A stretch of DNA of 64,000 bases, taken from Euglena gracilis (lineage: Eukaryota). The notes under the pieces are model-generated. The model was not told where the DNA came from. It saw nothing but the letters and a program-made list of their open reading frames with translations, and made no database searches. Where the stretch lies: the NCBI GenBank assembly GCA_039621445.1, contig CP154954.1:33763737-33827736 (forward strand), written 5' to 3'. Positions 16,201 through 63,150 of this stretch are shown piece after piece. Positions within the stretch are counted from its first letter, which is position 1; every line of letters begins with the position of its first letter. The translations under genes were made by a program, and so were the position numbers.

Positions 16201-16951
16201 CCGGACAGTGATGCACATCCACCGGACGGTGACACACATCCACCAGACGGTGACGCAAATCCACCGGACGGTGACGCACCTCCACCGGGCGGTGACGCAC
16301 CTCCACCGGGCGGTGACGCACATCCACCGGACAGTAACGCACATCCACCGGACGGTGACACACATCCACCGGATGGTAATGCACATCCACCGGACGGTGA
16401 CACACATCCACCAGACGGTGACGCACATCCACCGGGCACCTCCACCAGACGGTGACGTACATCCACCGCACGGTGACGCACCTCCACTGGACCGTGACAC
16501 ACATCCAATGACGCACATCCACCGCACGGTGACACACATCCACCGGACGGTGATGCACATCCACCGGACATAGGCGCATATTCCTTCGGACGGTGACGCA
16601 CGTCCACCAGACGGTAACTCACGTCCACCGGACGGTGGCAAACATCCACCGGACGGTGGCACACATGCACCAGACGGTGACGCAGTTCCACCGGACGGTG
16701 ACGCACATCCACCGAACATTTACGCACATCCACCCGATGGTGACGCCCATCCACCGGACAATGACGCACATCCCCCAGACGGTGATACACATCCTGACGG
16801 TGACTCGCATCCACCGGACAGCAACGCACATCCACCGGACAGTAACTCACATCCACCGGACGGTGATGCCCATCCACCGGACGGTGATGCACATCCACCG
16901 GACGGTGATGCCCATCCACCGGACGGTGATGCACATCCACCGGACACTGAC

Positions 16952-17258
16952 CATGCTTGTGCTTACCGACCGGGGGGGGGGGTGGGTGCTATAGGGGGCC
17001 TGCCCCTAGCAGGCACCCCCCCCCGGGGGGGGGATAGGGGTCCGGGCCGGACCCAGAAAATTTTCATTGAAAATGGCCGTTTCCGGGCCCCCGGCGCCTT
17101 CGGCGCCGGGGTCGGAGGGGGGTGCCTGCTAGGGGCAAGCACCCCCCCCAAAACCCTACTCCCCCCCGGGGGGGGGGGGTCGGATCGGGTGCTATGGGGT
17201 GCCTGCCCCTAGCCCCCCCCCCCCCCGTGGGGTAGGCACCCGACTAAGCACAAGCCTG
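16952..17258. mobile_element. Non-autonomous DNA transposon (hAT/P-like MITE) with 8-bp TSD
   Basis: Terminal inverted repeats (TIRs) CATGCTTGTGCTTA / TAAGCACAAGCCTG (13/14). Perfect TSD ACACTGAC at 16944-16951 and 17259-17266. Confidence 0.93.
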
Positions 17259-17621
17259 ACACTGACGCACATCCGAAGGACGGTGACGCACATCCACTGG
17301 AGGGTAATACACATTCACAGGATGGGGATGCACACCCACCGCATGGTGAAGCACATCCACCAGACGGCGACACAAATCCACGGGACAATGACGCACATCC
17401 ACTGGACAGTGACGCACATCCGCCGGATGGTAACACAAAACGGTGACACACATCCACCAGACGGTGATGCACAACCACCAGACGGTGGTGCATCCACCGG
17501 ACGGTGCCGCACATCCACCGGACCGTGATGCAAAAAAAAACAACCACGGGACGGTGATGTACATCCATCGGACAGTGACACATATCCACTGGACAGTGAC
17601 GCACAGCCACAAGACTGTGAC

Positions 17622-17915
17622 CATACCATTGCTTAGCGACCCCCTGGGGAGGCGGTCACTTTCCACTCTGAAAAACCAATCAGTCATTTTTTCTGAAAAA
17701 AAACCAATCAGTCACTTTATCCCCCCGGGGGGATCGGCCACGCTTCAGGAGGCAATGAAATGTTGTCAAAAAATCCGGCGCCTTCGGCGCCAGGCCAGCC
17801 ACTTTTCATTTTCAGGCCTACCCCACCCCCCCCAGGGGGGGGGTGGCTCTGGGCCGGAAAACCAGTCAGTCACCCCCCTGGGGGTGGGGCAGGACAGGTG
17901 CTCTGCAATGGTATG
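17622..17915. mobile_element. MITE with 11-bp perfect TIR and 8-bp TSD
   Basis: CATACCATTGC...GCAATGGTATG with TSD ACTGTGAC at 17614-17621 and 17916-17923. A related copy starts at 18988. Confidence 0.93.
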
Positions 17916-18570: not shown

Positions 18571-21500
18571 CTTCCCACCGCCGCCTGCAGGCCAAAGATG
18601 GTGAAGCCGCGGGCACTGTTGGTGGGGTCGAGGATGTCGGAGAGGTACGCCTGCAGTGGTGTGGAAGAGAACGACCCCCCCCCAACCTGTGCCAAAAGGG
18701 GGAGGGGGGGTATTACTCAGGGAGAAAACGTCCGGATAGTTGTAAAGCAGCACAGTGCACATTTCTCTAGCCGATTGCAACAGCAGTGGGATTCGCCCAT
18801 ACCGACGCCTGGGGCAGTTTGCATCAAGTGAAGGTGGATGGGTGGGGCTTAAAATGAAGCCATAAGGCCCCAAAATAACCGATGAAACTAACCCCCCTCC
18901 AAAGAACTCTCAGGACACAGAGGTGGGTAAGACCCTGCCCTGCCTCAAAACTTTTTGGTTGGAGTGCCATCAGTCGAGGGTTAAGGTCATACCATTGCTT
19001 ATTGACCCCCCGGGGGAGGGGGGTCACTTTCCACTTCCAAAAAAACAAATCAGTTTTTTCAAAAAACCAGTCACCCACTTCCCACCCCCTCCCTGGGGGG
19101 GGTCACTTTGGCCACTCACTCAGCCAAAAAAAAAAATTCAGTTCGGTTCAAAATGAATGGATTCTGTCAAAAAATTTTCACCAAAATCCAAAACCAAAAT
19201 CAAAATTTGACCAAAATTTTGGTCAAATTTTGGTCTTAAAAAATTTCCTGCGCCTTCATAGGCGGGTGGTGACTTTCTGCCCCACCCCAGTGTGAGGCGG
19301 GAATCGATGTAATTTAGGAGGGTCACAAATTGCAAAATTTAGCTGTCAAAGGTTTGGCCTTAGCTTTGCAGGGTACGCTGCGGCAGAGCTGGCTGGGGAA
19401 CTGCTGCGCAGAGTGGTGCTGTGCCAGTGTACACACGCCATCACCACGCCCCATGGGCTGGCAGAGGCTTCAGGTGCCAATTGGAAAATATTCGCTGGAG
19501 GAGGTGAAAATTAATTTTCATACATCTCCAATTTTATGGGTTGTACCCAACCCCAAGCCATAAAAACAAGCAGTTTGTTGACATAAAATCCAGAAAATTG
19601 ACAAAAACTCAGTCTCAGGTCAAAAACAGGCCAAGATGAGGAATTCTTCATAATCAGCAAACTCTTCCACAAGGTATCGAAAATCGCGGGGACAAAAAAC
19701 AAAACAAGGAAAAAAACACAAATTTTGCCAAAGTTTGAAAAAAAGCACAAAAAATGAAAACACATTTGCTTTCTGCCCCCCCCCCCCCAGCCCTTGTTTC
19801 TCCCATGCAGCCCTGTTGAGGAAGTTTGCAGCCCTGGGGAGTTTGGAGGAGTTGAGGAACCACCCCTCACTCCCTTGAGGGCAGCCTTTGTCGTGAAAAA
19901 CAATTCGGCATCTTTGGAGGGGGACACCTTCGACACGGAGATGTTGCCGTTGGACAGCCCCCATAAGAACCGCAGGCACAGCGCGTGGAGGTAGGACGAG
20001 CTCAGCCCGAAGAGGAGGATGGCGACGGCGGTGCCGGCCAGTCCTGAGCCGCACCGCGCAAAGGGGGAACCAAAGCCAGACAACAGATGGAATATTAAAA
20101 AAAAATGCTTACAACAAGAAATCAAAGCACAAAAGCACCACACATTCCAAGCTGCCACGGGTGAACCCCACCGCCCTGCCAATCCCACGCCCCACCCACC
20201 CGCCCGCCCGCCCCACAGGGTTGCCGGGGTTCTCGTTCAACTTCGCCCCAACCGGCCACGCGGGGCAGAGAGGAGGGCCCACACACACCGGCCATGAGGA
20301 TGGGCCGGCGACCCCAGCGGTCTGCCGCCCAGCCACCGCCAGGGGTTGGGGGGCTCCGGCGGGGTCAGAGGGTTGGGGGGCTTGGAAACCTGGCAAACTG
20401 TCAGCCCCCCCCCCTCGTCCCGGCAAACCCTGGCCCCAGCCATAGGCGGCCAGCAGCTGCCCGAGGAAGAAGGCCGTCGTGAGGTACCCGGTGTAGTACC
20501 TGCCGACAGCGGCGCAGAAACCCACGAAGAACCGGACGGAAGCAAATGAAGCGGGAAGGGGACGGACCTTGCAATTCGCTTCACCAGCCAGGCAGACCTT
20601 GCTTTTGAGAGGGAGGATGACCATTGTACACGGATGGGACTGATCACGACATCCCGCCAGAAAATTTTTGGGGCGCAGATACCTGCCAAGCACGATTGCA
20701 TCAAATCAGCTGCTGGGAATCTTTGCACAGAGCTCCCTCCTTTGTTGCAATGCAGCCAAAAAGGCTGGGTGCCGGAAGGAAGCAGGAAGACTCGAGCAGC
20801 AAAGAGAACACACATTGCACCAGGGGAAAAACGCCCTAATCTCCTCATTTCTTTGTGAGATTTTTTCCATAACCTTGCAAAAAATTTTAGTATGTTTATC
20901 TGGTCTTGAGTCGAGACATATTTTGATGGTTTTGTGAAATTTCTAAAAATCTCCACCTCCAGCTCCTGAGTCTTTTTGCATCTGTGTGCGTGTGTGCATT
21001 TCTGCCTGCCTGCCTGCCTGCGCGTGTGTTTGCATGACGAGTTTACACTTACTCCATTTACACTCAATCCCATTCTTGGTTTGAGCTTGATTCACAGCAT
21101 CCACCTGCTTCATTTCAAGCAAAGAATGCAATAACATAAACAGAACACAAAGAAAAATGGTTGAAACTTGATCCAGAGACACAAAATTTGACAGGTCCAT
21201 TCACTCAAAACCTGCGGTATATTACCCCCCCCCCACACACATTTTCAACCAACGCAAAATGATTACCATCTGTTTGTGAGATCCTGATGTGTCCAAACTC
21301 GGGCTGGGCTGCATCAATTGTGCTGACCAGGTTTGACTGACGCTTACAGGCAGCCACGGCCATTCAGGTGGGAGGGGGTGGGGGCCGCGCCGCACACCCA
21401 AGCTGCGACGTGGGGGAGGCGGGGAAGAACGCGCCGACCATGAAGGGGACGACCGGGAGGACGACCAGCATGCTGAAGTGGTTGGCGAGCAGCACCGCCC

Positions 21501-21622
21501 CGCCCAGGGACCCCCTTCACGTCCGCCCCGGAGAGCGGAGTCACACGGGCGGGCGAAGGGGATCCCTGGCCCCGACGGTGAGCACGCGGCGCCACGGCAC
21601 CGGCGTCGGGGCGACCTCGGCC
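18571..21622 (-). CDS. Major facilitator superfamily transporter (ZIFL/TetA-like), N-terminal half, multi-exon, 3'-incomplete in this window
   Basis: Exons 21622-21572, 21499-21398, 20499-20436, 20334-20289, 20043-19928 and 18650-18571 splice in frame. Product: AEVAPTPVPWRRVLTVGAVLLANHFSMLVVLPVVPFMVGAFFPASPTSQLGYYTGYLTTAFFLGQLLAAYGWGWAADRWGRRPILMAGLAGTAVAILLFGLSSSYLHALCLRFLWGLSNGNISVSKAYLSDILDPTNSARGFTIFGLQAAVG. It contains MFS motif A (GxxxDRxGRR) and RFLWG..NGN. Three introns are GT-AG and two are non-conventional. Confidence 0.9.
18988..19300. mobile_element. Second, right-end-degenerate copy of the CATACCATTGC MITE (intronic)
   Basis: CATACCATTGCTTA...GGTCACTTTCCAC...AATCAG matches the start of 17622. 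The right TIR was not found. Confidence 0.7.
20335..20435 (-). other. Non-conventional (euglenid-type) intron, 101 bp
   Basis: ggcCAGggtttg...caacccCTGgcggt. Ends base-pair, there is no GT-AG, and removal restores YGW|GWAADRWGRR. Confidence 0.9.
21500..21571 (-). other. Non-conventional intron, 72 bp
   Basis: ggcCAGggatccccttc...gaagggggtccCTGggcgg with a ~15-bp terminal stem and an in-frame stop inside. Removal gives LTVGAVLLAN. Confidence 0.9.
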
Positions 21623-28300: not shown

Positions 28301-31300
28301 ATTTTTTTTCAAAATTTTGGATGTCAGAGGTGACTTAAAAATTAAATCGGCTGCTGTTGTTGGCATCGCTGTGTTGTGGCAGGCAAGCACCTTCCCTCTT
28401 GTATCCACCATCATTGCAAGGAAGCGGCTCAAATCAAACCTTGATGACTGAGGCTGGATGCCACTCCACATATTCATCTCAGGAAAGGGGTAGCACTCTC
28501 TGAACCACCAGCGTCTTCCACAATGCTGCATCTCAGCTCGTTATTGAACCCACAAAAAAACTTCAGACCCATCACATTTGGCCAAAAAAGTCCCTGGTGG
28601 CCCTCCCTCTCCCATTCAATTGAGGTGCCGCTCCGCAATGTCCGCAATGCCCCACACGGGGCCATGACGGCGCTCGTCAGGAGGGCACACCACATTCCCT
28701 TTGTAAGCGCACAGCTGTGGGTGTTCCAGGGATTAAACAAGACGGCTGCAGCACCATCCAGACGGCATTCCGTGTCCCGCAATACAACTGGGCCAAATCA
28801 CAACAACTCGTTGACAACCAAGTTTCCCATAAGACATTTCTAAACCTCCTCCAGGGGGAGAAACTGCACGGGCCTACACGGGCCTGTCAAAAACTGCACC
28901 GCAAAAAAACTGCAAAAAACTGCAAAAAAAAACTGCAAAAAACTGCACTTCAACAAAAAATAACAATAAACAAGCTGAAAGGGTATGCATATGCAAAACA
29001 ACGTAAATTGCTACCGCATGAGCACGCCCCAATTCACTTAACTTTTTTTTGCACGGCTTTGGAGCCGATGACGACAAAAATGGGAGCAATCAATCAAGGT
29101 GCACTGTGCATGGTTTTTCATGCACTGAAATGCAAATCATGTGTCCGGATGACGGGTCACATCGGTTTTCCTGCATCAAAACTTGTGCCGACCATGCCCA
29201 CAAAGATGCCAAACGGCTGTCTTTCTAAATATGGGGAAAATGCACATTTACCCATACACAGAAATTTTCAATGCTTTCATTTCTTGCAGGGGATGTTCAG
29301 TTTGGAACTTCCGGTCCATCACCTGGTAAAGTTTCCCCATGTCACGATGAAAAAAAAAACTACAAAAACCACCACAAACTTTGAACATTGTCCTTAGGGG
29401 AATGCCAAATGGTCTACAACCTGGGAATTTCTTGCAAATAAGAAAGAACTTCTTGCTCTTTGAAGCATTTGGCTTATGTGACATTTGGCCACAATGCTTG
29501 GGGCAAGACCCAATCTTCTTCAGGAGCTCCTTTGCAGCACCATGAATTTCGAAATCCTCAACTCCAACTGCAACCAAAATTTGCACAAAAAAAAGTTTTT
29601 GTATTTAGTCCCTAGGAATCCCGACATAAATAGTTGAATCTGCTCAGGAGTGCGCAAATGACACTTGCCAAAATGAGCATCGTCAAATCTATCAGCACAG
29701 GCTGGAGATGAAGCAATTTTGGTTGGGGAGTAATTGTGGTCTTGTCACCGAGACAATCTGTTGTTTTTTTTTTGGGGATGGTGGCTGCACCAATCTGTGT
29801 TTTTAAGAGGCAAGGCAGTTAGCAAGACAGTTGGGGGCAAAACAATTGGTGGGATAACTGTAGACAACACAACTCCTGAGAGATGATGCCTTTTCTTGAG
29901 AAACACCCTTCAAAACATATAATCCAGCACCAAAAAAAAAACAGACACGTCAGGTTTCCTCAAAATTGGAATAAAAAAAAACTGCAAAAAACTGCATCTG
30001 TGCAGTTTTATTTCAAAAAAAAGGTGCAAAAAAACTGCAAAAAAACTGTAAAAAAAACTGCAAAAAACCCCCCAAAACGTGAAAACTGCAAAAAAAACTG
30101 CAAAAACTGCACGGTGCATATCCCCCCCTGGCTCCTCCCTCCCCCTGCATTCGTGTGTCATTTTGCAAGGCCCCATCTGGACCAGGCTGGCCAGGTTGGG
30201 CATGTTCTACGACTCTCCCAGATGAACGTGCCATCACAGCAGAACCTTAGTGTTTGACCACTCACCACCACCGCGTGTCTATGACATACAGGCTATTTTG
30301 AATTGCACACATCCCAGATGAAAGCAGTGGGTTCCGACTTCGTCTCCCCCTCCTTCTAGTGCCTCTTCCGACCACTCAGGCCTTCGAAGTCGTTGCCCTG
30401 AAAATTTTAATCTTCAGAACGAAGCGTGACTCTGCTTCCTTCTGGCCGCTTTAAATTTTTTTGGGAGTTTCTGTTGCACCTCCTCCTGCCCCTCATTTCT
30501 GCCGATTGACGTCCAAAACGAAGCGGGTTTTGGCAATCTCCGCTTCCCCTTCTCTTCCCATCTTCGCTAAAACCCCCATTTTGGTCATTTTGCATTTTGG
30601 CGACTCGGCATACAGTGGAACTGGGCAATGACGAAAAATTGTTTTCGCTTCGCCTGAAAATTTTGTGTACTTTTCGCCGTTGACTTCCACTGAAAGCATG
30701 CCCCTTTTTTGCTCATTTGGGCCTCTTGTAGAAATCCATTACTCCAAACCAAAACGGACTGTTCCAAAAAAGGTTAAAAACTTTAGGGGGTCGAACGAAG
30801 CGGATTTCCACTTCCTTCTCCGCTTCAAACCTTCAACAACTTTTGGGCAACTTACGCCGCCCAAGCCAAACCTCCAGGGTTTGCCTGTTTTTATTCTTCT
30901 TCAGCTATTTAACACAATTAAGCTAATTAAGTTAATTTGCAGTTGCGGTTGGTCGCCAACACACAGCAGGTGGGGTGGTGGAGCCCAGCCCGCAGCCCAG
31001 TGAACAGCAGCCCTGCTGCGCCCCAACCGAGGCAACGGCCCGTGGGGACGGCCCCCTTCAGGCCCTTCCGCTTCCACACCCAGTCCCCCCCGGGGACCCG
31101 CTGCAGCGTGCCGAGGTGCTCCTCCGGGAAGCACCCGTCGAGGTGGGCCATGAGGGCCTCCGGTGGCCCCGTGAACCTGCGGCACGGGAGGACGATGGGA
31201 GAGGGAGGGGGACGGTTGGGGAGGAGGGCTGGGCTTGGGGTGGGGCCTGTGAATGAAATGCGGGGGGGGGGGGGGGGGGAGGCCGCGGGGGGAAGGGGGG

Positions 31301-51049: not shown

Positions 51050-51129
<80 letters not shown>

Positions 51130-51135
51130 CGTGTG
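51050..51135. repeat. (TC)n(TG)n compound microsatellite
   Basis: Direct inspection. Confidence 0.97.
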
Positions 51136-51160
51136 GGTGGGTGGGTAGATGGGAGAGTTA

Positions 51161-51343
51161 ACGTAGGAAGAGGCTCGAGCTCGAACGTTCGAGCTCGAGC
51201 CTCAAGCCGTTTTAAGCCCCCCCCCCCCCCCTCAGGGGGCTTAAAAAACCTCCTCGAACCACCTCGAACGACATTCGAGGAGTCTTTCGAGTCTCCTCAA
51301 ATGTGCTTGAGGAGGTTCGCGAGCTCCAGAGCCTCCTCCTACG
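51161..51343. mobile_element. Short MITE (CGTAGG...CCTACG); related sequence at ~44130-44280
   Basis: ACGTAGGAAGAGGCTC / GAGCCTCCTCCTACGT inverted ends; CCTCCTCGAACCACCTCGAACGACAT is shared with 44167. Confidence 0.7.
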
Positions 51344-51522
51344 TACACATATGGGGGTGCTTTGGGGCCCTCTGTGAAAAGTTGCCTACAAAACGACTGG
51401 CACAACAAAGGGGATTTGCACACACAGGGCATATGTATTCAGGGTCCTCCGAACAGTTGCGTACAAAAGGGCATCGGCAACAAATGGGGTTTAAAATTAG
51501 TTGAATATGTATGTATACATAT

Positions 51523-51808
51523 GGCAGCTAGAGTTTACTTGCCCCCCCCCCCGGGGGGTCCAAGTAAAGACTCCAGGGGGGGGTCAGAATTTTTTTTGTG
51601 TTAATGATGGAGTAGCGTTAGGTGCGCGCATTCGGCCTAACCCTAACCCTAACTTGTACACCTAACACCTGTCTATAAGTTGGGCCTAACCTTAGGCCTA
51701 ACTTGCGCACCTAACCCTATTCCATCCTTAACACAAAAAATCTATTTTGACACCCTGGAGTCTTTACTTGGACCCCACGGGAGGGGGTGCAAATAAAGTC
51801 TAGCTGCC
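51523..51808. mobile_element. Foldback-like MITE with ~100-bp TIRs in an (AT)n tract; telomere-like core
   Basis: GGCAGCTAGAGTTTACTTGC..GGTCCAAGTAAAGACTCCAGGG.. mirrors ..CCCTGGAGTCTTTACTTGGACC..GCAAATAAAGTCTAGCTGCC. Core CCTAACCCTAACCCTAAC; AT on both flanks. Confidence 0.88.
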
Positions 51809-51847
51809 ATATACATATACATATATGTATATATATATATGTATATA

Positions 51848-51878
<31 letters not shown>

Positions 51879-52359
51879 GTTTTATATATAAACCGGAAAT
51901 AAACTGGAATAGAAATTGTCAGAATATCCAGAATATTCCGGAATTTCCGTGAAAAAAGCGCAGTGGAAAGTATGAAACATTTTCATGTAAAGGTGGCTTT
52001 TTGCGCTTTATTTGACTGCCAACGCTCCATTAAAGGTGGCCAAAAAGCTGCCAGAAGTGGAATCTGACAGGAGATCCGGGTTCCACCATTCATAGGGTTT
52101 GGACAGCCCTGGGGTCTTCCGGTTGGAAAAAAATATATCTGGCACTTCGCACCGATCTGAAAACGGGTTTTAACCTTTTTTTTTTTGCTAATCTTGTTCC
52201 AAAAATGCCAGGTTTCTGTGATCAGCTGGTGCGAAACTGGGAAAACCATTCCGCAAAATGGGGTTGCAAGAGTTTCCACTAGAAATTGCACTGCCCAGCT
52301 TTGGACTTGCTACAACCCAGCTTCTCAGGGTTTGCAACTCCTTAAGCAAAGACCTGACC

Positions 52360-52403
<44 letters not shown>

Positions 52404-52734
52404 GCTCAGCTCCCAGTGTTTTGGACATGGGCGACCACCCATGCTCCTCCTCACCAGGAAAAAATTGTCGTCGCCGCCTGGGTTGCTTGCAGCAGTGGGA
52501 GTATCGATATACAAAATGTTTTCTCAGGCTGGGCAGATGTATAATTTTTTAAAAAATAATCAACGGGGACAGAAAGAATTTACAGGCCACCACCCACCCA
52601 CCTACCCGCACGCATACACTCATGCATGCAATACCCACACACGTACACTCATGCATATGATACCCACACACATGCCCACACACACACCAAACAAAACAAA
52701 CACACACCACACAGTAACACCATCACACAACACA

Positions 52735-55700
52735 CCCAGCGCGGCTTCCTGCACCTCGAAGATGGGCGACCATCGCCCTTCCTCAGCAGGCTCAACAGGG
52801 GAGTAAATCGCTGGGGAGGATGGAGCCAGGGGGTCCTCGTCGTCGTCATCCAGCACCATGATGGGGATGGGTCGCACGGGCTGTGTTCGAGATGCCGGTT
52901 GCTGTTGGGAGGAAGAGAGGGATGTAGGCACGGCAAGAAAAGGCTGAGGTGTGCCGGTTGGGCACTGTTCAGCAGCCGCAGAGCACTCGTGCACACAGCT
53001 CAAGGCTCACAGGCACACAGGTCAACAAGACAGAGATTCACATGCGTCCGCATGAGTGGTTTAGTGCTTTGATACCTAAATACCATTTTTTTGGATTTGG
53101 TGGATGGCACGGACTTATACAGGACACGCCTGAGAATGCTGCCGAAGGAACGTATCGATGGAGGCACGGGATGCGCCGTGATCCCCAGAGTCTGAATCCG
53201 AGTCCGATGCTGCACACAGCCTTTGTCGCCCTGCAGGCACCCCTGGGGGTCTGGCTGCAGACTTCTTCCACCTCATTCCAGGTTTCCCATTGGGTGCGGT
53301 TGGGGTAAAAAATCTTCAAATTCCAAATTCTTCTCAACCCCAACCCAAACCCTCACCCTCACCCAACTTCGGTCCACATGCGGTTCATTTTGCTGGGAAA
53401 ACCACGGAAATCAAGGGAATGGGGGGGGAGCTAACTATGCATATCCTTTGTGCCGGGCAGGGGTTGTGCTAGACACATCTTCCTCATCACATACTTATTA
53501 TCATCCTTACCACATCACTTATCCGTGCTTGGGGGGAGATGGCTGTTGCCGATGCAATTGATTCTGACCCTCCCCCCAAAAAGGTGTTGTGGTCGAGATC
53601 ATGATTGCCGCTTCGTCGTGGCGGGTGGAGTGTGTTCTCTCCTGCGCTGCCACCTGCCACACGGCGAAAGGGTATGTGGCACGGACGCTCCTGCGTCCAG
53701 TGTCCCCGGCCACCCATTCAGGTTGACCGTGGACCCCCAAAGGCATACAGCTGCCGCGCACGGACGGGATGTGAACGGGTGAGGCGGGGGGGGGCACCGG
53801 CTGCTCGGCGGCCGCCACCGTGCTTTCGATGTTGGCGAGGGTGGTGAGGGAAAGCACCTGCACCCAGCGCGGCTCCACGCACCGCGGCCGAGGGCCTCGC
53901 CGAGAGGGGGGGGGGCTCAAGGGGCCAACCTCCTTCCCGTCCCATCACAGTTGCCGCCTAGGGCCCAAAATGGAACTTTGGGATTCCTCAAAAGCTCGCT
54001 TGCTTGCCCATCATTGATGTGGATGAGCAAATCCATAAGAACCCCCCCCTGCCATAATTGCCCCCGGGGTGCCCCAGACCAGACACGTGCCAAAACTGGA
54101 CTGGGAGGAGGGCCCCGAGCATGAGTGGTAAAGGTCCGCGTACTTCGCCCACGGCCGCAGACAGGAGCAGGCCAGCGCTGCTGGCAGGCACGGGCGATGG
54201 CACCCACCACGCCCCCCTCCCCACTGCTGTCCGCCCCTGTCCACCCCCTCCCCCTGGAGCCGGGCCTGGCCTCCAGGCCGGGGGCGAAGAGGGAGGCGTA
54301 GACGGGGTGGGTGTGCACAACGAGGGTGTCCAGCAGGATCCTGATGGGGGAGGCAGTCCCATTGAGCACCCGGGTAGACCCCACCGTCCTGGTTTGGTGT
54401 TCCCACACAAAATGTTGCCCCGACGTTCTGGATGAACAAATGCGAGGGGAATTTGGGGTTACCACAAGGAGTAAGGGAATTGATAGGGGAAGCCCCACCC
54501 AAGCGAAGATTTGCGAAAATTTTTCGTAAAACTGCATTGTTCTTGATGGGATTCTGCCGTTGGGGGCACCTCGGCCCAACCTTAAACGGCTGGGAACATC
54601 CGAGAGATTCCGAAAAAATGCAATTCTGAGACCTTCATACCTTGTGGCATAATCAAAACTCTCACACGGATTATTGTCCATTTTCACAGAAATATTCAGG
54701 GTAAAGATCCTGGGTCACAAAATCCTAGAAAATGGTCTGGTGCTTCTGTTGTCACAGTACAGTTATTCTTCCATATTGGACAAAATACTCTGTAAAGCTT
54801 CAAATTAACATTGGAACTTGGCGCTGTACAGGCCAAATGAACACAATTAGCAGGCTTCCATTTTGGGGTTTCCCCGCATTGGCTCGAATGATAATGTTTT
54901 TTGGTTTAATGTTTATGTTTGTTGTACCTGACAAATCAAAAACAGCCACCCACCTCAAATAGGCTTTGCCGCAGTGCAAATGGCAGGACACATGGTGGGC
55001 ATGCAGGAGCACCCGGGGTCACACACCAGGCCGCCAGGCGCGCCAGGGGGGTGGGGGCCCCGCGGACGCGCTCCTCCACAAGGGCCACCACCTCCCCGGC
55101 CCACTGCGGGGCCAGCGCCCCGCCGGCCTTGGCGACCCGGATGATGGCGGCAGACCGTCGCGGGGGTTGGGAAGGGAGGCGGGGCCCAGGCTGGAGGTGA
55201 CCCCCCCCCCGCGTGCCCGGGGGTGCCGGGACAGGCAGGCACCCCTCTGCACCTCTCTCTCCCCTGGGGTGGGGTCGGGGCCTGCCTGGTTGTGGCCCAA
55301 AAAAGTGCCAGAAATGGACTCTTCTGGAATTGCCTTGACTGTGTGCCCAGGCACTTCTGGCCATAAGCCCAACCCCCCCCCCCCCAGGTGCAGATCTGGG
55401 TGCTTTGGAATGCCTACCCCCTTGGGGGACCTCAAAATTCAGCCTGTTGGGGATCCCACCTGCCTGCCGGGATCAGGCCGTATTTTACCAACCCCGGAGG
55501 GGGGGGTCCAGCGTGCCTATGAGTGCCTGCCCAGGCAGGCACTACCCCCCCCCCCTGCGAGGGGGTCGGATTTCGGCCTGCGCCCAGGCACATTCCTTTG
55601 AAAATAGGCCATTTTTGGCTCCCGGCGACTTCGGCGGCGGGTCTGTGCTAGGGCACTTTTGGCCGTGTGTCCGACCCCCCCCCCCCCCAGGGGGTTCGGA

Positions 55701-58312
55701 TATGGAGTGCCTTGGAGTGCCTGCCCAGGCAGGCCCCCCCCGGGGTGGGGTCGGCACCTGACTAAAATACAGCCTGGCTGGGATGGCAGGAGGTCCCAAC
55801 CATCTGAATCACGGCACATGTAAATGAGATGTGTTGATTAACAAAAAAAATCTAACAGGCGCGCACAGACGATGAGCGCACAGACGGCGAGCACAGGTGC
55901 TCATCGCCTGTGCGTGCTGGTTTCGTTTGGAGGGAACAGAAAAGCAAATTCCCAAACACCCAAGATGAGGTTTCCTGAGCCTCCCCATGCGTGGGGATAA
56001 GCATGTTTTGGGCCGGGCCGGGTTGGACATGACAGGATTTGCTGCGAACCCAGGGGGCAAAATCTGGGAACAAAAATTTGAAAGGACATGCAAGCTGAAC
56101 CTCCTGGAAGGCCAAAGATCAGCCACATGTGGTAAATCATCAGGGCAAACAAAGTTGGGGATTCGCATTCAAAGAAGGGACAAGCCTTGGGTAGAAAAGC
56201 ATTCACATATCGCCCAAACCCCAGACAAAAAAAATAACGGACAAAGGGGATAATATTTTGATAGCACATTGAGCAGATGGATGCTTGTGTGCGTTGCGTT
56301 AAACTTTGTGAGTGTTTACACGGGAGCACGAAACCGAATCGCATCCAATTGACACCGGGAGACCAACTGCCTGGCCAGTCTCACATGGATCCGGCCGCCG
56401 CAACGCGAAGAGGTCCTGCCGGAAGGCGTCCAGAGAACCCGGCGGCGCGGCCATCACCCCGGGAAGAGGGTGTGGGGCAACATGGGGCGGGGGAAGAGCT
56501 CTGACCCCCCTGGCGGCGCAGAGCAGACCGTCAACGTTGGTTGGGGCAATCCGGGCAACGGAATCGGGGCCACCGCCAAAAATAGGGATATCTGAGGATG
56601 CAGTGGCGCCAGGACCATACCCGGGGCAGGCCAGCCATTTGGGTGGGTGGGCGCACCCGTTCCGAAGGCAAACCAAACCGTCGTCCCGTTTCGACCCATG
56701 GCAGGCTGTCCCGGGAGCCTCGATTCTCATTCTCGTTGCCTCCAAATGTGCCACAGGGGTAAAACTTTTGGGATGTAACAAAAACGGTTGGGTAGTACAG
56801 ATTCCTGGTCAAAGAAACAGAGACATGTGTTTGATAGCAAAACGTTATCCACATTGGTTTGTTTGGCTGCCTCCCATTCCCGAGTGGGGTTGACCCCCAG
56901 GCCCCCCCCCCCTGCATTGTATGCCCCCCTGTAAAAGTGGTGTCCAGGGGTATGGGCGCAGAGCCGGAAAGACCAGACGGAGAGAGAGACCTGGCAACTG
57001 GTCCCTTGGCTGGTATTGCGCTGGATCTAAAACGTGGTGCCCCCCACGCACAAGGAGGGTTCACCACAGGAGAATTTCAGCTGGAAAATAATACATGTTG
57101 AAAATAGAAAAAGGTGGTGGGCAGCGCTCGCCGTCCCCCACCCCAGGTAGATAGCCAGGTTTCCTGCTCACCCTGGCTTTTTATCTGGAGAATAAATCCA
57201 TAAATCAAAAAATTGAGAAGACAGAATAAACACAAGAGTGTAAAGGGGCTGTATGCATGACCGCCCTCCCAGCACCTCTGAGCTTGAACTACAACTTCAT
57301 TGGCAAATTCACATTGAAACAATTTGCTATTCTGCTGAGGGAACTCAACCACAAAACCAGATATATGAGTTGCCTGTACCATCCAATTACGCAATTTTCT
57401 GGGAGGGTTGGGAAGCCATCTCTCTCCCTGCCCTTCTTGAGAGACCACAATGCAACCCCCCTTGGCAAAACGGCTGTGCTGTGAAATCGAGGTGGAGCCG
57501 TGTCCGTTGCCTCGTGTCTGTTGGCGAGGGGTGGCGGAGTGCGAGTGCGATTGGACACCGGATGGCACCTTGCTGCGGGGCCGTGCACAGCGTGGAGAGT
57601 GTGGAGGGGCGAATGTGCTGTGAACTGGACAGAGAGTTCGGGTTCGGGCGTCGCAGGCATACTGAAGAAAGAAGTGCAGGCGCTCGGGCGGGTGGATGAC
57701 AGGCAGTTCAGTCACCAAGCGGACTTCCGTCAAATGCATTTGTGCATCTCAAACCATTTTTCATTAATTGTGGAATGCGCCATCAATGCAGTAGAGACAG
57801 GGACATGGGTAAAGGGCTTGTTTTTGGGCGGCGGCCAACTGCGCGGATCCAGAGTTCAGCCATCAAACCAATCACTGGGCCAGATTGGAACCAGTCCAAA
57901 AATCCACCGACCCCGTCCCACTCTCTGACACTCTCTGACGGCTCTGGGACCCAGGGGGTCCCAGAGCAGTGGAGGCGAGTGGTTCAGGGGGCAAGCCCAC
58001 TGGCCGTTCGACGCTATGAGTGAAACGCGACAGGTGGGCGCGGGCGGCGAAGGGGACCGAATAGTACAAGTGAGACACACACGGAAGGAGCAACGGTGCC
58101 GGCGTCCCGCCTCGAAAGCCACGATGGTGGACCCCACCCAAGAGCAGGGGGGAGGGCCTGCCTGTTTGGGGGATAAAACATTTGCTCCCGCTGGTGGGAA
58201 AGCGTCCAAAGCAGGGGTTTTCTTAAGGACCCCCCCCCGGGGGGTCCAGCGTCCGGCTGGCAAAAAGGCTGCTGGCTGGAAATGAGCTGCTGGCTGGACC
58301 CCCCGGGGGATA

Positions 58313-58349
<37 letters not shown>

Positions 58350-59024
58350 GGGCTGGGTCGATGAAAACCAAAATTTTCTAAAGCATTTTTGCCATTTTCG
58401 AAATTTTGATGGATGGAGCTAGGTGAAGGCTGTGATTGGTTGAGCTCTCTGATTGGGAAGCTGTGATGAGGGGAAAAAATGCAGGCATAGGTGAGTTGGG
58501 CAGCCCAGTTGGCTGGCCGGCCTGCGACCGGCTGGCCTGGCTCCAGCCGGGCTGGACCCGACTTTATTTCACTCGACCCCCCCCCCCCGGGGGGGGCTCC
58601 CAGCCCGAATTTGGGCTGCTGGCTGGAATTGAGCTGCTGGCTGGCTGGACCCCCCCCCCGGGGGGTAGGGTACCCTCCGGCTTAAGAAAACCCCTGGTCC
58701 AAAGTGTTTGGGGGTTCCATCCAGATCGGAGGCGGCCCACCAGACAGGCCGTCAGGGGGCCGCGTTCCACACCGCCTTGAACCTCGCCAGCTCTGCGTCC
58801 AGGTCCACGCCCTCCCCCCGCGGCCGCTCCGCCTCCCCGTCCGCCGCCGCCCCCGCCGCCCCCGGGCCCTCCGGCGCCGGCTCCGGCCGGGCGGGGCTGG
58901 GCTCGGCCTCGGCGGGCTCCGGCCGCTGGTCCGGGTCGGTGAGGCCGAAGGAGAACGTGTCGTTGGCGTTCTTGTTGCCGAACGGGAAGAGGGTGGGGCC
59001 CACGGCGGCCGGGGCCCGTGCCAT
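52735..59024 (-). CDS. Multi-exon gene region with a CID (RPR/Pcf11-like CTD-interacting) domain followed by an acidic low-complexity segment
   Basis: First exon MARAPAAVG... from 59024. Exons ~55160-55027, 54340-54272 and 54179-~54120 splice (GT-AG, then non-conventional 54271-54180) to SAAIIRVAKAGGALAPQWAGEVVALVEERVRGAPTPLARLAAWILLDTLVVHTHPVYASLFAPGLEALACSCLRPWAKY. A following exon reads RWVQVLSLTTLANIE. The pattern resembles CID helices (A.EIV.LIE....AP...KL...YLLDSIV). The last exon seen ends at a GT donor at ~52734 without a stop. Confidence 0.6.
54180..54271 (-). other. Non-conventional intron, 92 bp
   Basis: ggcCAGgcccgg...ccgtgcCTGccagc; removal gives PGLEALAC. Confidence 0.78.
55380..55775. 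mobile_element. MITE family with GAGTGCCTGCCCAGGCAGGC repeats; second copy at ~23760-24030
   Basis: Shared TGGAATGCCT, GGAGTGCCTGCCCAGGCAGGCCCCCC and terminal AAAATxCAGCCTG. Confidence 0.65.
58212..58696. mobile_element. hAT-like MITE, 16-bp perfect TIR, 8-bp TSD (intronic)
   Basis: CAGGGGTTTTCTTAAG / CTTAAGAAAACCCCTG; TSD GTCCAAAG at 58204-58211 and 58697-58704. Confidence 0.96.
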
Positions 59025-59180
59025 CCTTTAGCCGGCGGGGCGGGGGGGGGGGGGGGGGGGGAGCGGCCTCCTGCTACCGTTGAGGAATGCTTGTGAGCAG
59101 CCTCGAAGCGACCCTTTGGGGATGCTGACAAACTCCCTCGGGTGACGATGAAGGATGGGTCCAGCGGGGTGGGGCCTTGG

Positions 59181-59664
59181 CAGGGATGGATGGGAAGCCT
59201 TGAGGGGGGGGGGGGGGGGTCGGACCCCCCCCCGCAACGGAGGGGGGGGGGGGTGGGTTGGACCCTCCCCTCCTACCTCGAAACTGAGGGGGGGCCGAAA
59301 TTTTTTCGATTTCATGGACGGGCAAAGGGCCGGAAATCGGGTCGGAATCGGTCAAAAACCCCTGATTTTTCTTTGAAAATCGATCCAAAAATGCTCGTTT
59401 TTTTAATTTTTTTGAACATGTTTTTGAGGGAAAACACCAACACATCAAAAAATGGTCAATATGGCCAAAAGTCAGCGGGGGGGGTGTTTTTTGCTCATTT
59501 TCCGGCGCGCAGCGCCGGAAAAAAATTTTCTGCTATTTTTGGCACCTGTCGAGGAGGGGGGGGTGGGGGGTCCGGACCCCCCTCCCAACATCTAGGGGGG
59601 GGGGGGGGTCCGGACCCCCCCCTACCACCTACCTCAATACCGAAGGGCTTCCCATCCATCCCTG
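59181..59664. mobile_element. hAT-like MITE, 19-bp perfect TIR, 8-bp TSD
   Basis: CAGGGATGGATGGGAAGCC / GGCTTCCCATCCATCCCTG; TSD GGCCTTGG at 59173-59180 and 59665-59672. The TIR starts like maize Ac (CAGGGATG). Confidence 0.96.
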
Positions 59665-60958
59665 GGCCTTGGGGTCCTGGGGGGAAACCGGCCATCGCTT
59701 GCTGGTTCCGTGCAACTGTCTGCGGGGTCCCAAAATAAAAAGGATCCCTTGTGTACACGCGCAACTGTGAAAAGTGCAATGTGTGCCAATGTGTGCTATG
59801 TTTACAAAATTGTACAAATGGTTGGTTTTTGCAAATGCAAAAACAGAGTCTTTGGTCGATTTGCGCATCTGCACACAACAACCACTTGTGAAAATTAATA
59901 CACGTGCCATTTAGAGGGCGTGGCACCACTGCAGTTTGGAAATCCTTCAGTGCGAGATAAACACAACTAAAGGACGCCTGCGGGCCCGAATTTGGGCATT
60001 GGCAATTGAAACTGTGAAAAAATATTTCTTAGCCCCTGGAACCTCAAAATAAACAACGTTTTCAGGTTTTATCAGGAAAAGCTAAGTTTAGAAGTGCCCT
60101 TCACCCCCAGTATTTAGTCCGAAAATGAGGCACAATTTATTGGCTGAAGATATATAGATGTGTCTGCTGACTTGAAAATCCCCGTGTTCAAGGGGCCCAA
60201 AAATGCAACACACTCACACACTTTATTTGACCTTCTCAGACACACCTTACAACACCACCACTTTAAGCACAACACCTCAACAATCTGCTCTCCTCCTGTT
60301 TCGATTATTTTCTTGTCTCAGAAGGCCCTGTTGCCAAGGCCTCAAAATGAAAAATAGTTTTGGTTGGTTCCCACAATTGTGAAAAACAACCATTTTAATG
60401 GTTAATGTGCGCAATTGCACACACCAACTGCCCAAAAATACCAGCATTCAACAGGGGTCCAGAACCACAGAAATACAAAGGGGGTAATACCACAGCGTTG
60501 CCACACTCATTTTCCAGCTCCAAATACATTGTTTATGTGGCATGTGGACTTCCACTCCTTTTGTAACCAAATTCCAAAATCTCCACAACGTGGAGCAAAA
60601 CTGACTTAAAAAAGCACAAAGGGGTGGACCTGCAACCCACCTCCAGAGCACCACCTCGCGTTGGCAGTTGCCACACAGGGAATGGGGGGAGGCGGTTGTC
60701 AGTGTTTTTTCACTTTGGGGGATAGGTCCGGGGGTTTTTGTGTAATTCCGACCCCCCCAAAAAACAGCAAAAAAAAAACACGTAATTCCCGGGAGAGCCA
60801 GGGCCAAAAATGACAATCCGCTCATATTTTGTCCAATCCTGCTCCCTCTCGCTCTCACCCTTTGTAACGCCGACGCTCAAAATGGTTTTTGGTCGGTTTG
60901 CGAAAATGCGCAAATAGACCAAAAAATAGCTTAAATGTGCAATCTGAGAAATGCCGGG

Positions 60959-63150
60959 TCACCCTGGGGCGGGCATCACGATGTTGGAGCCGAACGGTGC
61001 GGCGGTGCCCGCGGTGGCAGTCGCCTCCGTGGACTGCGCCGAAGGCCCAAACGGCATGGCGGGGGCGCAGGGCCGCCATTTGCAGGGGGAGGGGGGCCCC
61101 CGACCCATGCCGACGGCACAGCATGGCATGCCACATCGGGGGTCCGACGGACACAACCGTGCAAAGTGGAGAGAGAATTGTCTGTGTGAATGAGCCCACA
61201 GCCCCCACTCCCAGCTCCAGGTCGGAGACCCCATACGCCCATACATCGAGACACCCGTGCACCCATCCACCGGGTGTTGTGTATCCGGCGGCAGCGCCGA
61301 CCCCAGACCCCCACCACCGCTGACCCTAAAGGCGTCGGATGGCGGGCTCTGTGCGGAGGCGGCCGCGTTGCTGGGGCCGTCCGCCCGCCGCTCCCCGGCC
61401 TCGCCGCCCTCCCCCTTTGGCCGCCCGAACGTGTCGCCGGAGACGTGGTCGAAGGGGGTGCTCTGGGAGGCGCTGCGCTTGGCGCCCGAGCCCCCGAAGG
61501 GCGACTCTGCGTGGAAGGAGGGGAGGGTGGGGATCAGGGCATCCCTTAACGACCCACTCGGACGGGTTCAACTCAGAGGATAGAAATTTTGAGACGGCTG
61601 GGAAAAGGCTGCTGGCTGACCCCCCCCCCATAGTGGTCCCCCACCTGGAACTGGGCCTTACAAGGGGTCAAACCTGGATAACCCCCCCCCCCCAAATATA
61701 ACCCCCTCTGGGGGCCTTGAAATTCCACCCAAATGTAAAACCCCCGGACGGAAAAATCCAATAATTTCATCATTTTGTGACAGCATTTGGTCATGATTTT
61801 GACAATTTTTCCAAAAAATGGTCACAAGCTGTATTTCACCATAAAAAAATGGTGAAATTTAATCAAAATGGGGCGCAAAAATGCAAAAACACGCTTTGGT
61901 CACGGAAGTTTGATTTTCCTGCCCAAACATAAAATACCCCAAATATAAAGCCCCCCTCAGGTGTTGAAATTCCCACAAAATATGATACCGGGGGGTATAT
62001 TTGAGGGGGGTTGCCCTAAAACTAAAACTGGAAAAAAAAATGCCTCAAAAACTGCCAATTAGATGATAAAAATCGATTTTGGACTTAAAAATTGAGCTGG
62101 GCAGCCCTTTTCTGACTCATTTTTGCCCATTTTTGGCCCATTTTTGCAACTCCGAAAGCAAAAAGTCAGTTACCATCCAGTGGCCCTTTTGGGCGGCTGG
62201 AAATAAATGCACTCGTCGATGGCCAGGGAAGGAGTTTGGATGGAAAAAGGCTGCTGGCTGGCTGGACCCCCCCCCCCTGGGGGATGGGGTGCCCTTTGAC
62301 TTCAGAAACACTCTGGTGGGGAGAGGAGCCACCCAATGAGTTCTGTAAACCGAGAATGCCTCAAGCAAGGTTGCTGTCTGAAAAATAAATACAAATGGTT
62401 TAAAAACCATTTAAGCCTCCACCAGGGCGAAGCAGCAATCAGAAAGGTGTTCGCTTCATGGGGAGTCATCTGAATAAAAATCTCCGGAACCAAGCGCCAA
62501 TCAAATCATTCACCCACCCACAGGCAATTCCGCAAATGAAACGGGAACGTTGACCAGATGGCGGTTCTTCAGAGGCGGTCCACAAGCCCCCCCCCAGACC
62601 AGCGTTGGGACCGCCCTGCCGACCGCAGCGCTGTTCCGCGCGGCGGGCCGCGTGGGCAGCCGCGCGGCGCGCCGGGGCACACCGTCGCTCTCCAGCGGCT
62701 CCTTGCACACGTGGCGGGTGTGCCCGGTCCGCCGGCAGCGCGTGCAGAAGATCTCCCGCGGGCAGTCTCCCACAGGGCGGCAGTTGAAATCTGGTGGGGG
62801 AGGTGACCAGGGCTGTGCACGAAGGCCGGGGGGGGGGGGCTGGTCAGACCCCCCACCCACCCACCCATGGGGTTGCGGGGATTCCGGTACAGCCCTGGGG
62901 GTGACCCCCCCCCGGGAGGTCAGGATGGCACTGCGCAAGGGAAAGTGCCTTTGTGCCGAAGGAAAACTTGCCCGAAAAAAAAGGCGGCCCCCTGGAAAAA
63001 AGAGATGCCCCACTCAACCAACCGCCAGCAGAGGGTTTTGGGGATTCCCGTCCGGCCCTGGTCGCGCAGGCCGTGGTCGATGCTGCCGCAGTTCCGGCAC
63101 GGCCCGTCACTGCTCGGCCCCCGCGAGGGGGAGGACGCTCGCCCTGGGAA
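60959..63150 (-). CDS. Tandem CCHC zinc-knuckle protein (3' part; multi-exon)
   Basis: Removing intron 63063-62768 gives CRNCGSIDHGLRDC-PREIF-CTRCRRTGHTRHVC, two CX2CX4HX4C motifs. Further coding-like exons lie at ~61510-61325 and ~61070-60959. Confidence 0.75.
62768..63063 (-). other. Non-conventional intron, 296 bp, splitting a zinc knuckle
   Basis: gacCAGggcc...gccCTGtggga; removal restores the fourth ligand Cys. Confidence 0.9.

Follow-up and report, generated by a model that had tools for sequence, protein, structure and literature searches.

Transposon ends and 8-bp target-site duplications that fit the nonconventional intron code at a Euglena gracilis locus

Relation to described introns and transposons

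The closest described counterparts of this locus are the nonconventional (NC) introns of euglenids (Milanowski et al., 2014, 2016; Nomura et al., 2025), with which the candidates reported here share non-GT-AG ends, base pairing between these ends, CAG/CTG or CGG variants at positions +4 to +6 and −8 to −6, a purine at the start of the next exon, and short repeats at the junctions. Removal of NC introns takes place in the RNA and follows a code, N3-CDG...CH'G-N5 before a purine, in which distances are counted from the paired ends; the donor spacer is strictly 3 bp and the acceptor spacer 5–6 bp (PMC12501133). Experiments showed that the purine is required for splicing, that fully synthetic 50-bp introns containing only the code features are spliced, and that an acceptor spacer of 6 nt is tolerated (PMC12501133). 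NC intron ends show an enrichment of CAG(G)/(C)CTG, with +7/−9 being G/C in 31/55 cases, and the junctions of a newly gained NC intron in gapC of E. agilis carry direct repeats of eight nucleotides (PMC4770533). The same 2016 study attributes this repeat to double-strand-break repair, unlike the reading as a target-site duplication (TSD) considered here. A MITE origin of NC introns has already been proposed (Milanowski et al., 2014, 2016; Nomura et al., 2025), and CAG/CTG as a terminal inverted repeat (TIR), TSD-like repeats and the 8-nt repeat at the gained intron are likewise published (PMC3935182, PMC11282704, PMC4770533); in their text outside the supplements, the euglenid papers neither name MITE families nor tie the 3- and 5-nt spacers to an 8-bp TSD.

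Introner elements are MITE-derived spliceosomal introns of Micromonas, dinoflagellates, and Fritillaria (PMC11282704). The arrangement considered here is similar in that a short DNA transposon with TIRs and a TSD lies in an exon, is gone from the RNA, and leaves no scar because the TSD shares in the splice boundary. Introners, however, occur as many near-identical intronic copies, depend on the spliceosome, and have TSDs of 3–5 nt (PMC11282704), whereas no family of introns came to light here, the TSDs are 8 bp long, and a non-spliceosomal, helix-measured code would govern removal.

The elements in the window, i.e., the 64,000-nucleotide stretch of E. gracilis DNA that was analyzed, resemble hAT/P superfamily MITEs in their 8-bp TSDs, short TIRs starting with CAG or CAT, lack of coding capacity, and very high repetition. 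They may be hAT- or P-like, as judged from just the TSD length and the CA(G/T) ends; the autonomous transposase that the original prediction proposed to look for was not found among 130 ORFs, and neither was an autonomous copy. The CAGGGATG terminus may resemble that of maize Ac. A further parallel is the intron created by maize Ds, where a hAT-type non-autonomous element that sits in an exon is cut out of the transcript; in the case described by Giroux et al. in 1994, spliceosomal sites reportedly lie within or near the element and removal is not precise to the TSD.

Intact MITEs and the splicing code

Judged by its intron type, the window is nuclear DNA of the euglenid kind. It contains two satellite arrays, several non-coding MITE families, and minus-strand genes with both GT-AG and NC introns. 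We scanned it for 12-nt TIRs, allowing up to 2 mismatches, that were flanked by a perfect 8-bp repeat. This yielded 33 rows, mostly homopolymer or satellite artefacts, and recovered four of the five MITEs listed earlier: M2 (17622–17915), M3 (45672–48020), M4 (58212–58696), and M5 (59181–59664). The fifth, M1 (16952–17258), carries a mismatch in the terminal seed; its TSD, ACACTGAC, is perfect. All five predicted MITEs with perfect 8-bp TSDs were therefore verified. M1 has CAT...CTG ends and sits in a 21-bp satellite. Its empty site, reconstructed by taking out the element and one TSD copy, matched a neighboring satellite unit at 35/36 positions, better than when both copies (26/36) or neither (30/36) were kept, and M1 thus passed an empty-site test at a paralogous site. 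For M2 (CAT...ATG ends, TSD ACTGTGAC), the match was 28/36 whether one TSD copy or neither was retained. M3 (TSD GGATAGGG) contains an internal 19-bp tandem array and belongs to the M5 family (94.4% identity across 359 nt); M4 has TIRs CAGGGGTTTTCT, the TSD GTCCAAAG, and further family copies at 45035–45665; and M5 has TIRs CAGGGATGGATG and the TSD GGCCTTGG, with its minus strand being the transcribed one. An extra MITE at 55474–55776 is M1-like but has CAG...CTG ends, flanked by a 7/8 TSD (GCCGGGAT/GCTGGGAT). The CAG-ended elements start with CAGGG or CAGGC. In the DNA run X1, bins with M3, M4, M5, or the 55474 element had depths of 1.3×10^5–8.8×10^5, compared to 67–124 in unique neighbors; taken as a sign of repetition rather than as a copy number, these depths indicate that the families are highly repeated.

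The code N3-CDG...CH'G-N5|R fits M3 on the plus strand, M4 on both strands, M5 on the minus strand, and the 55474–55776 element on both strands, with at least 13/15 positions paired, while the CAT ends of M1 and M2 fail its CDG/CH'G requirement. As CAG-ended MITEs with their TSD satisfy the code, excision by this code would take out the element together with a single TSD copy, leaving no scar; the arithmetic of the original prediction (3 + 5 = 8) is correct, although the spacer sum is not strictly 8 given that a 6-nt acceptor spacer is tolerated. A CAG...CTG MITE with an 8-bp TSD accordingly supplies every element of the code. The TIRs provide the helix, the left TSD contributes its final 3 nt as N3 and the right TSD its initial 5 nt as N5, and excision gives back the uninterrupted exon. 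We consider it fairly probable that at least a part of the NC introns stems from MITE-class insertions fitting the NC code, with CAG/CTG ends and an 8-bp TSD.

The same fit would arise if the code came first and MITEs with suitable ends and TSD length were tolerated in genes and thereby became abundant, in which case the match shows which transposons survive rather than a machinery shaped around them. The distribution of elements is in line with such filtering: the off-code M1 and M2 are located in satellite, the code-compliant M4 and M5 lie in a transcribed gene, and the 55474–55776 element lies near minus-strand RNA contig pieces. Filtering is also favored by the six MITE TSDs, in which, as read by eye, a pyrimidine|purine step is not clearly preferred at positions 5|6, so the purine rule of the introns looks like a splicing requirement. 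Nevertheless, the sample is small, at seven or eight elements, M4 sits within an intron, where filtering is unneeded, and MITE insertion would still be the intron source, such that the difference from an insertion origin concerns only which side adapted. We regard filtering as a tentative and somewhat unlikely explanation.

Candidate introns and their flanking repeats

The nine candidate introns (I1–I9) all lie on the minus strand, with 3 bases preceding the 5' triplet (CAG in 7/9, CGG in 2/9) and 5 following the 3' triplet (CTG in 8/9, TCG in 1/9). Their ends pair at 11–16 of 16 positions, compared to a mean of 6.1 for random intervals, 2.3% of which reach 11. A purine opens the downstream exon in all nine and GGC forms the first three intron bases in six. 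The predicted geometry and paired ends therefore held for each candidate, except that the TCG of I6 falls outside the published CH'G rule; with this reservation, the nine candidates and a tenth, RNA-verified intron (58095–58745) are counted as fitting the euglenid NC type.

I1 (20335–20435, 101 nt; N3 GGC, CAG...CTG, N5 GCGGT; 11/16 paired) has a boundary that slides by 3, a next exon beginning with G, and flanking 8-mers identical at 6/8 positions. I2 (21500–21571) is paired at 16/16 positions, has a boundary that slides over 7 positions, and consists of a 64-bp MITE-like CAGGG...CCCTG hairpin element (21505–21568) together with a single copy of a duplication matching at 7/8, with the flanks GTCGGGGC and GGCGGGGC; its unspliced frame, read by eye, meets a stop codon inside the hairpin element, and I2 is the one candidate here for an insertion-derived NC intron. 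The boundaries are not slidable for I3 (33446–34254, 809 nt; N3 ACC, CAG...CTG, N5 CCCCC; 11/16 paired; flanks 2/8) or I7 (37703–37970, 268 nt; N3 GGC, CAG...CTG, N5 GGGCC; 11/16 paired; flanks 3/8). I4 (34316–35194, 879 nt, CGG...CTG type) and I5 (35351–35453, 103 nt; N3 GGC, CAG...CTG, N5 CCTCG) are each paired at 12/16 positions with flanks of 4/8, and in I6 (35532–35696, 165 nt, CGG...TCG type, 12/16 paired) the third pair within the motif triplet is a G-U wobble. I8 (54180–54271, 92 nt, 11/16 paired) fits the code. I9 (62768–63063, 296 nt, flanks 6/8) includes a 90-bp CAGGG...CCCTG mini-element (62808–62897, 13–14/16 paired), itself flanked by GAGGTGAC and GGGGTGAC (7/8).

When the nine introns were compared with the MITE families by BLAST, none belonged to or clustered with a family. 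The sole match was an internal M4-like fragment within I4 (35043–35099), and I1, I2, I3, I5, and I8 had no non-self match at E ≤ 1e-3. The original prediction that intron geometry equals a CAG...CTG transposon plus one TSD thus holds for the CAG-ended MITEs, which fit the code, but its extension to these families as intron generators is not supported, as they have no family in common with the introns, M1 and M2 fail the code, and M4 is a passenger in a larger intron.

The flank identities given as decayed TSDs (7/8, 6/8, 6/8, and 2–4/8 for the remainder) were reproduced exactly. They sum to 40/72, the highest of 13 registers, compared to 33.5 ± 3.3 for permuted pairs (P = 0.042). However, this marginal excess is carried by I1, I2, and I9, for which the boundary is one among 4 to 7 equivalent positions, whereas I3–I8 reach 21/48, which is background (cross-pair mean 3.6 per 8). 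Within the 3-nt portion of the 8-mer, identity is just what cross-pairs would give (17 vs 17), and candidates and boundaries had been picked by eye to suit the rule. The TSD-decay signal is consequently weak, given this P value and the six introns at background. Pairing of 15/16 or better was seen in 88 code-like pairs. In eight of them, flank identity reached at least 6/8 at the predicted register, compared to 0–2 at each of 8 shifted registers; the eight are M3, M4, and M5 on both strands, the 55474–55776 element, and I2. I2 is in the same statistical class as intact MITEs.

Another explanation is coincidence: RNA-cutting and -joining machinery measuring from the helix would set the 3/5 geometry, the MITEs would be ordinary hAT-/P-type elements unconnected with intron origin, and the junction repeats would stem from double-strand-break repair or base composition. 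The marginal pair-specific signal and the lack of common families agree with this, as do the repair interpretation of the gapC repeat (PMC4770533) and the direct repeats around 84.4% of all E. agilis introns, conventional ones included (PMC12501133). Moreover, outside the satellite, this G+C-rich DNA contains 8,360 code-like pairs in which 12/16 or more positions pair, and the code features alone are therefore not selective. Coincidence nevertheless demands that three independent features meet, i.e., CAG/CTG termini, base pairing of the ends, and a spacer sum equal to the length of the TSD. In addition, the empty site of M1 demonstrates 8-bp duplications by transposition in this genome, and the predicted register is the only one at which I2 groups with the intact MITEs. 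N3 also shows no pairing with the first bases of N5 (10/27 positions), so that cutting of a simple extended helix with a 2-nt overhang is not indicated. We judge coincidence to be unlikely.

RNA evidence and the proposed origin

RNA reads were mapped on 44001–64000, a region that takes in I8 and I9, with I1–I7 outside. Neither intron had a joint among the joints listed (827 further joints exist). For I9, the RNA contig piece on the right-hand side of 62683 spans 82 nt and thus ends at 62764, which is the intron start minus a 3-nt slide, and the RNA-defined exon (62683–63142) has no open frame unless I9 is cut out. The proposed RNA check of the junctions hence backs I9 indirectly. Two conventional GT-AG introns occur in the same minus-strand gene, at 61507–62682 (joint in nine X21 reads, six X24 reads, and one X15 contig) and 63143–63618 (cut +1; seven, four, and one, respectively), with neither joint in the DNA run. 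For I8, raw-read RNA depth was 0.16–0.18 per strand; its bin had a DNA-run depth of 110.8, the level of unique neighbors, and I8 is therefore not repeated sequence.

The tenth NC intron (58095–58745, minus strand, 651 nt) was verified by RNA, directly follows a stop codon, and holds the whole of M4. Its joint (58092>58744, slide 2) was present in 13 X21 reads, seven X24 reads, and one X15 contig, with none in the DNA run X1. With the 2-nt slide, it has N3 GTC, TGG...CCG, N5 GCACC, G at the next exon, and 13/16 paired positions; flank identity, read by eye, was 4/8. Splicing of a 58212-family copy at its own ends was not borne out, since M4 is a passenger here and only the joint of the host intron is among those listed there.

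It is quite unlikely, in our assessment, that some of the nine are not introns and instead are chance hairpins in non-coding or pseudogenic DNA, picked for a GGCCAGG/CCTGGCC pattern. The GGC start in 6/9 suggests pattern-led selection, thousands of code-like pairs arise by chance, and I8 is without a listed joint. Furthermore, Pfam matches were found for 0/10 exon translations, and a search for relatives of the 52-residue exon found none. However, the joining of open frames by each removal, the downstream purine with at least 11/16 pairing in 9/9, and the exon that requires I9 removal all argue for genuine introns. The joined frames, moreover, may contain a motif of transporters, motifs of the primase type, and CCHC knuckles (a CCHC zinc-knuckle in the I9 gene).

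In favor of a MITE origin are the perfect TSDs, the M1 empty site, the repeated families, the code fit, the splicing of synthetic introns, the 88-pair test, the 40/72 identity, the gapC repeat, and the CAG(G)/(C)CTG enrichment. Against it are the lack of a common family, the unique depth of I8, a signal from three introns, eye-picked boundaries, and M4 as a passenger, as well as the 4/8 flanks at 58095–58745, the off-code M1 and M2, the 6-nt spacer, RNA coverage outside I1–I7, and no transposase in 130 ORFs. Altogether, transposon ends and 8-bp TSDs that fit the NC intron rule support, but do not prove, the published idea of a transposon origin. What appears to be new is the explicit tie between this rule and the 8-bp TSD, made with concrete MITE families.

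Geometry of the candidate introns

All nine candidate nonconventional (NC) introns lie on the minus strand, at 20335-20435, 21500-21571, 33446-34254, 34316-35194, 35351-35453, 35532-35696, 37703-37970, 54180-54271 and 62768-63063 (I1 to I9 in that order), and script translations showed open frames being joined on removal of each. None has GT/GC-AG ends. As the original prediction had stated, three bases stand ahead of the 5' triplet and five past the 3' triplet in every candidate, and the ends are paired at 11 to 16 of 16 positions; random intervals averaged 6.1, with 2.3% reaching 11. The 5' triplet is CAG in seven introns and CGG in two, and the 3' triplet is CTG in all except I6, where it is TCG. 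The rule N3-CDG / CH'G-N5-6 with complementary middle bases describes eight of the nine (seven CAG/CTG, one CGG/CTG), and I6 falls outside its CH'G part on account of the TCG. The downstream exon begins with a purine in all nine.

These features can be set beside the experimental Euglena code, given in PMC12501133 as 5'-N3CDG-/-CH'GN5-6|R, with a donor spacer of strictly 3 bp and an acceptor spacer of 5 bp, 6 being tolerated. The same study describes CGG-CCG and CGG-CTG variants as accepted and fully synthetic 50-bp introns as spliced. Outside the satellite, 8,360 code-like pairs showed pairing of at least 12/16, so the code features alone are not selective. Six of the nine introns begin with GGC, which suggests pattern-led picking. 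Full-length circular RNA is the release product of NC introns according to Guminska et al. (2021), as cited in PMC11282704 and PMC12501133. A staggered cut of the RNase III type along an extended helix was considered and rejected, as N3 and the first bases of N5 paired at no more than 10 of 27 positions.

Two tandem-repeat arrays occupy the left part of the window, a 79-bp satellite (1-10724) and a 21-bp satellite (13244-16945) that continues beyond the first MITE, the array extending to 17620; the remainder of the window is G+C-rich. The type of its introns marks the DNA as euglenid-like. Rfam gave no match in the window at the gathering score. In 130 ORFs (120 aa or longer) from 18000-64000, Pfam matched low-complexity families only, and long ORFs without a Pfam domain fit genes split into small exons. 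Ten in-frame exon translations matched no Pfam family at E ≤ 1, and the 52-residue exon at 35195-35350 had no longer relative at E ≤ 0.001. Judged by motifs in the translations, the genes may be transporter-like, primase-like and CCHC-knuckle genes.

RNA evidence for splicing

A search of sequencing runs listed no RNA run that contains the window; six runs with a small share are presumed to be RNA, four raw-read RNA runs were chosen by species label, and 14 DNA runs from 11 studies contain at least half of the window's sampled words. RNA mapping covered 44001-64000, the part with MITEs, I8 and I9, and used two of the raw-read RNA runs, one presumed RNA contig set and one set of DNA contigs. 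Three joints were found in all three RNA sets and were absent from the DNA set: 61506>62683, 63142>63619 and 58092>58744. The first two are GT-AG on the minus strand. The third, when slid by two ambiguous bases, reads N3 GTC, TGG...CCG and N5 GCACC, with a next exon starting in G and 13/16 pairing. The interval 58095-58745 is an NC intron of the same geometry as the nine, again with ends other than GT/GC-AG and with a downstream exon that opens with a purine, and was missing from the list in the original prediction. Its triplets are TGG and CCG, the first pair being a wobble. It starts right after the stop codon of a minus-strand gene and encloses the MITE at 58212-58696 (M4) whole.

Neither of the junctions predicted for I8 and I9 was represented among the joints listed for 44001-64000, but removal of I9 from RNA was supported indirectly. 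To the right of 62683, the contig piece measures 82 nt and so stops at 62764, a position equal to the I9 boundary once a 3-nt slide is subtracted. Moreover, every frame of the exon at 62683-63142 meets a stop as long as I9 is left in, and removal of I9 completes a CCHC knuckle across the junction. Raw-read depth over the candidate I8 was 0.16-0.18 per strand; DNA depth in its bin was at the level of unique sequence, which shows that I8 is not a repeated element.

The minus-strand gene at 57481-64000 is expressed and encodes putative CCHC zinc knuckles together with a C-terminal region in which FG-type motifs abound. Its molecules start at 57481, which is probably the 3' end of the transcript. 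It includes a micro-exon of 35 nt (63619-63653); immediately ahead of this exon, the gene strand has CTG-N5|A, like the end of an NC intron.

MITEs and their target-site duplications

We scanned the whole window for 12-nt terminal inverted repeats (TIRs) with up to two mismatches, 40-2500 bp apart and with a perfect 8-bp direct repeat on their outer sides. Most of the 33 resulting rows were homopolymer or satellite artefacts; the rows also included the elements at 17622-17915 (M2), 45672-48020 (M3), 58212-58696 (M4) and 59181-59664 (M5). The element at 16952-17258 (M1) escaped because its terminal seed differs (CAT rather than CAG), and its target-site duplication (TSD), ACACTGAC, is perfect. 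All five intact MITEs of the original prediction were therefore confirmed, each with a perfect 8-bp TSD immediately outside the TIR. A second scan added an M1-like element with CAG...CTG ends at 55474-55776 and a 90-bp element nested in I9 (62808-62897), both with TSDs matching at 7/8 positions. The 21-bp array is the insertion site of both M1 and M2, and its adjacent units serve as paralogous empty sites. Compared with such a unit, the M1 empty site matched at 35/36 positions with one TSD copy kept, 26/36 with both kept and 30/36 with neither. For M2, the comparison gave 28/36 with one TSD kept and the same with none kept.

The MITEs are 294-485 bp long, or 2349 bp where an internal tandem array is present, contain no Pfam domain and have further copies in the window. 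M3 is a copy of the M5 family (94.4% identity over 359 nt) and encloses a tandem array of 19-bp units; this array comprises about 45 copies at 46895-47740, and a short form of M3 that lacks it is represented by a 47925/46050 joint in DNA and RNA contigs. In DNA run X1, element-bearing bins reached depths of 1.3x10^5 to 8.8x10^5 versus 67-124 in unique neighbours, an excess of 10^3- to 10^4-fold that is a depth figure and not a copy number and that indicates heavily repeated element families. By TSD length and termini only, the MITEs would be classed as hAT- or P-like. The autonomous transposase with the same TIRs that the original prediction had proposed to search for was absent from the window, where none of the 130 ORFs encodes a transposase domain. 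An exact scan of metagenome contigs for the 19-nt terminus of M3/M5 found eight loci with one match each and no inverted partner within four mismatches; these matches are at chance level.

Several further intervals resemble such elements. One of 288 bp at 51522-51809 has 12-nt TIRs that begin with TGGCAG and is flanked by TATACATA, a perfect 8-bp repeat that may be due to chance, the flanks being TA-rich. Another, of 1849 bp at 29544-31392, has GAATTTC-type inverted ends (10/12) and the perfect 8-bp flank repeat AGCACCAT, and could be an element or a chance match. The GT-AG intron at 61507-62682 contains a CAG...CTG interval of 781 bp (61535-62315) that is paired at 13/16 positions, has flanks repeated at 7/8 and may be a further nested element. 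RNA reads over the M4-like segment at 45464-45567 (47-83 per loose end) continue into other sequence with an agreement of 0.92-0.97, and a copy of this segment appears to be carried by an abundant transcript elsewhere in the genome. The otherwise unrelated families (M1 to M5 and 55474-55776) have in common internal C-then-G runs, i.e., poly-C/poly-G palindromes, and a GGCGCCTTCGGCGCC-type hairpin, which account for many weak BLAST cross-hits.

Introns and MITEs as a possible matched pair

The origin of euglenid NC introns and the machinery that removes them have been open questions for some thirty years. The original prediction held that the splicing code removes a CAG...CTG MITE plus one TSD copy, given that three and five bases sum to eight. 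By structure, this would apply to M3 (plus strand), M4 (both strands), M5 (minus strand) and the 55474-55776 element (both strands), which show every element of the code when their TSDs are read as spacers, but not to M1 and M2, because these are CAT-ended. Pairing reached 15/16 or more in 88 code-like pairs, of which eight had flank identities of at least 6/8 at the predicted register, compared with zero to two at each shifted register. These eight are the intact MITEs and I2. On this basis I2, with 16/16 pairing and a 7/8 TSD, is a 64-bp MITE-like hairpin; left unspliced, it would stop the apparent coding frame.

The flanking 8-mers, which had been proposed to be decayed TSDs, matched at 6, 7, 2, 4, 4, 4, 3, 4 and 6 of eight positions for I1 to I9, respectively. 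These values exactly reproduce those first reported (7/8, 6/8, 6/8 and others 2-4/8) and sum to 40/72, versus 33.5 ± 3.3 for permuted partners (P = 0.042). Register 0 was the highest of 13, the remaining registers giving 20-33. The pair-specific signal sits in the 5-nt part of the 8-mer (23 vs 15.75; P = 0.023), while the 3-nt part equalled its cross-pair expectation (17 vs 17) because a G-purine-C consensus is common to both positions. At the intron boundary, the candidate TSD matches at 7/8 positions in I2 and at 6/8 in I1 and I9; the other six introns are at background (21/48). The boundaries of I1, I2 and I9 can slide over 4, 7 and 4 positions, respectively, so the cut 3 nt before CAG is a choice in these introns. 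For nine hand-picked introns, the signal of TSD decay is no more than suggestive.

The further claim that the MITE families generate introns found no support in this window. BLAST found no intron-to-intron or intron-to-MITE family match, the sole exception being an internal M4-like fragment inside I4, and no RNA excision at a MITE's own ends was seen among the joints listed. Introner elements, in contrast, occur as many near-identical intronic copies across genes, and no such intron family is present here. Overall, the original observation was largely correct, and an origin of these introns from MITEs draws support from structural logic and from I2 as the one good example; it finds no support in family membership, in solid statistics or in RNA joints listed at a MITE's own ends.

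A MITE origin of NC introns was proposed in 2013 (PMC3935182) and the proposal is repeated in PMC6221363, PMC11170887, PMC12621601 and PMC12501133. A 2024 review terms the CAG/CTG at +4 to +6 and -8 to -6 a TIR and the junction repeats TSD-like (PMC11282704). Eight-nucleotide direct repeats at a recently gained gapC intron of E. agilis were ascribed to double-strand-break repair in PMC4770533, which also asks if the source sequence left CAG(G)/(C)CTG behind as a fingerprint. The discussion of a 2025 functional study still terms the origin unclear (PMC12501133). Full-text literature searches of main texts found none that equates the summed 3- and 5-nt spacers with an 8-bp TSD, assigns the elements to hAT or P, or names a MITE family. 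Reading the introns as MITEs gives a published hypothesis a sharper shape that can be tested.

It is possible, if still rather doubtful, that euglenid NC splicing and CAG-ended DNA transposons with 8-bp TSDs form a matched pair, with the cut geometry (three bases before the helix, five after) corresponding to the TSD, such that any insertion into an exon in sense orientation would be a scarless intron on landing, provided that TSD position 6 is a purine. If true, this would account for the approximately 72% of introns that are NC in E. agilis, as well as for the frequent junction repeats and the 8-nt repeat at a newly gained intron. Genome and RNA data sets able to settle the question already exist, E. 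agilis alone having 649,158 junctions. Were the 8-bp match real, the loose idea of a MITE-like origin would become a quantitative, falsifiable model in which junction repeats are capped at 8 nt in a fixed register, younger introns have higher repeat identity and a defined transposon class is spliced scarlessly at once. The machinery would then best be sought among factors able to bind hAT-like ends in the form of RNA hairpins, and NC introns would be the first non-spliceosomal intron class linked to a named transposon architecture.
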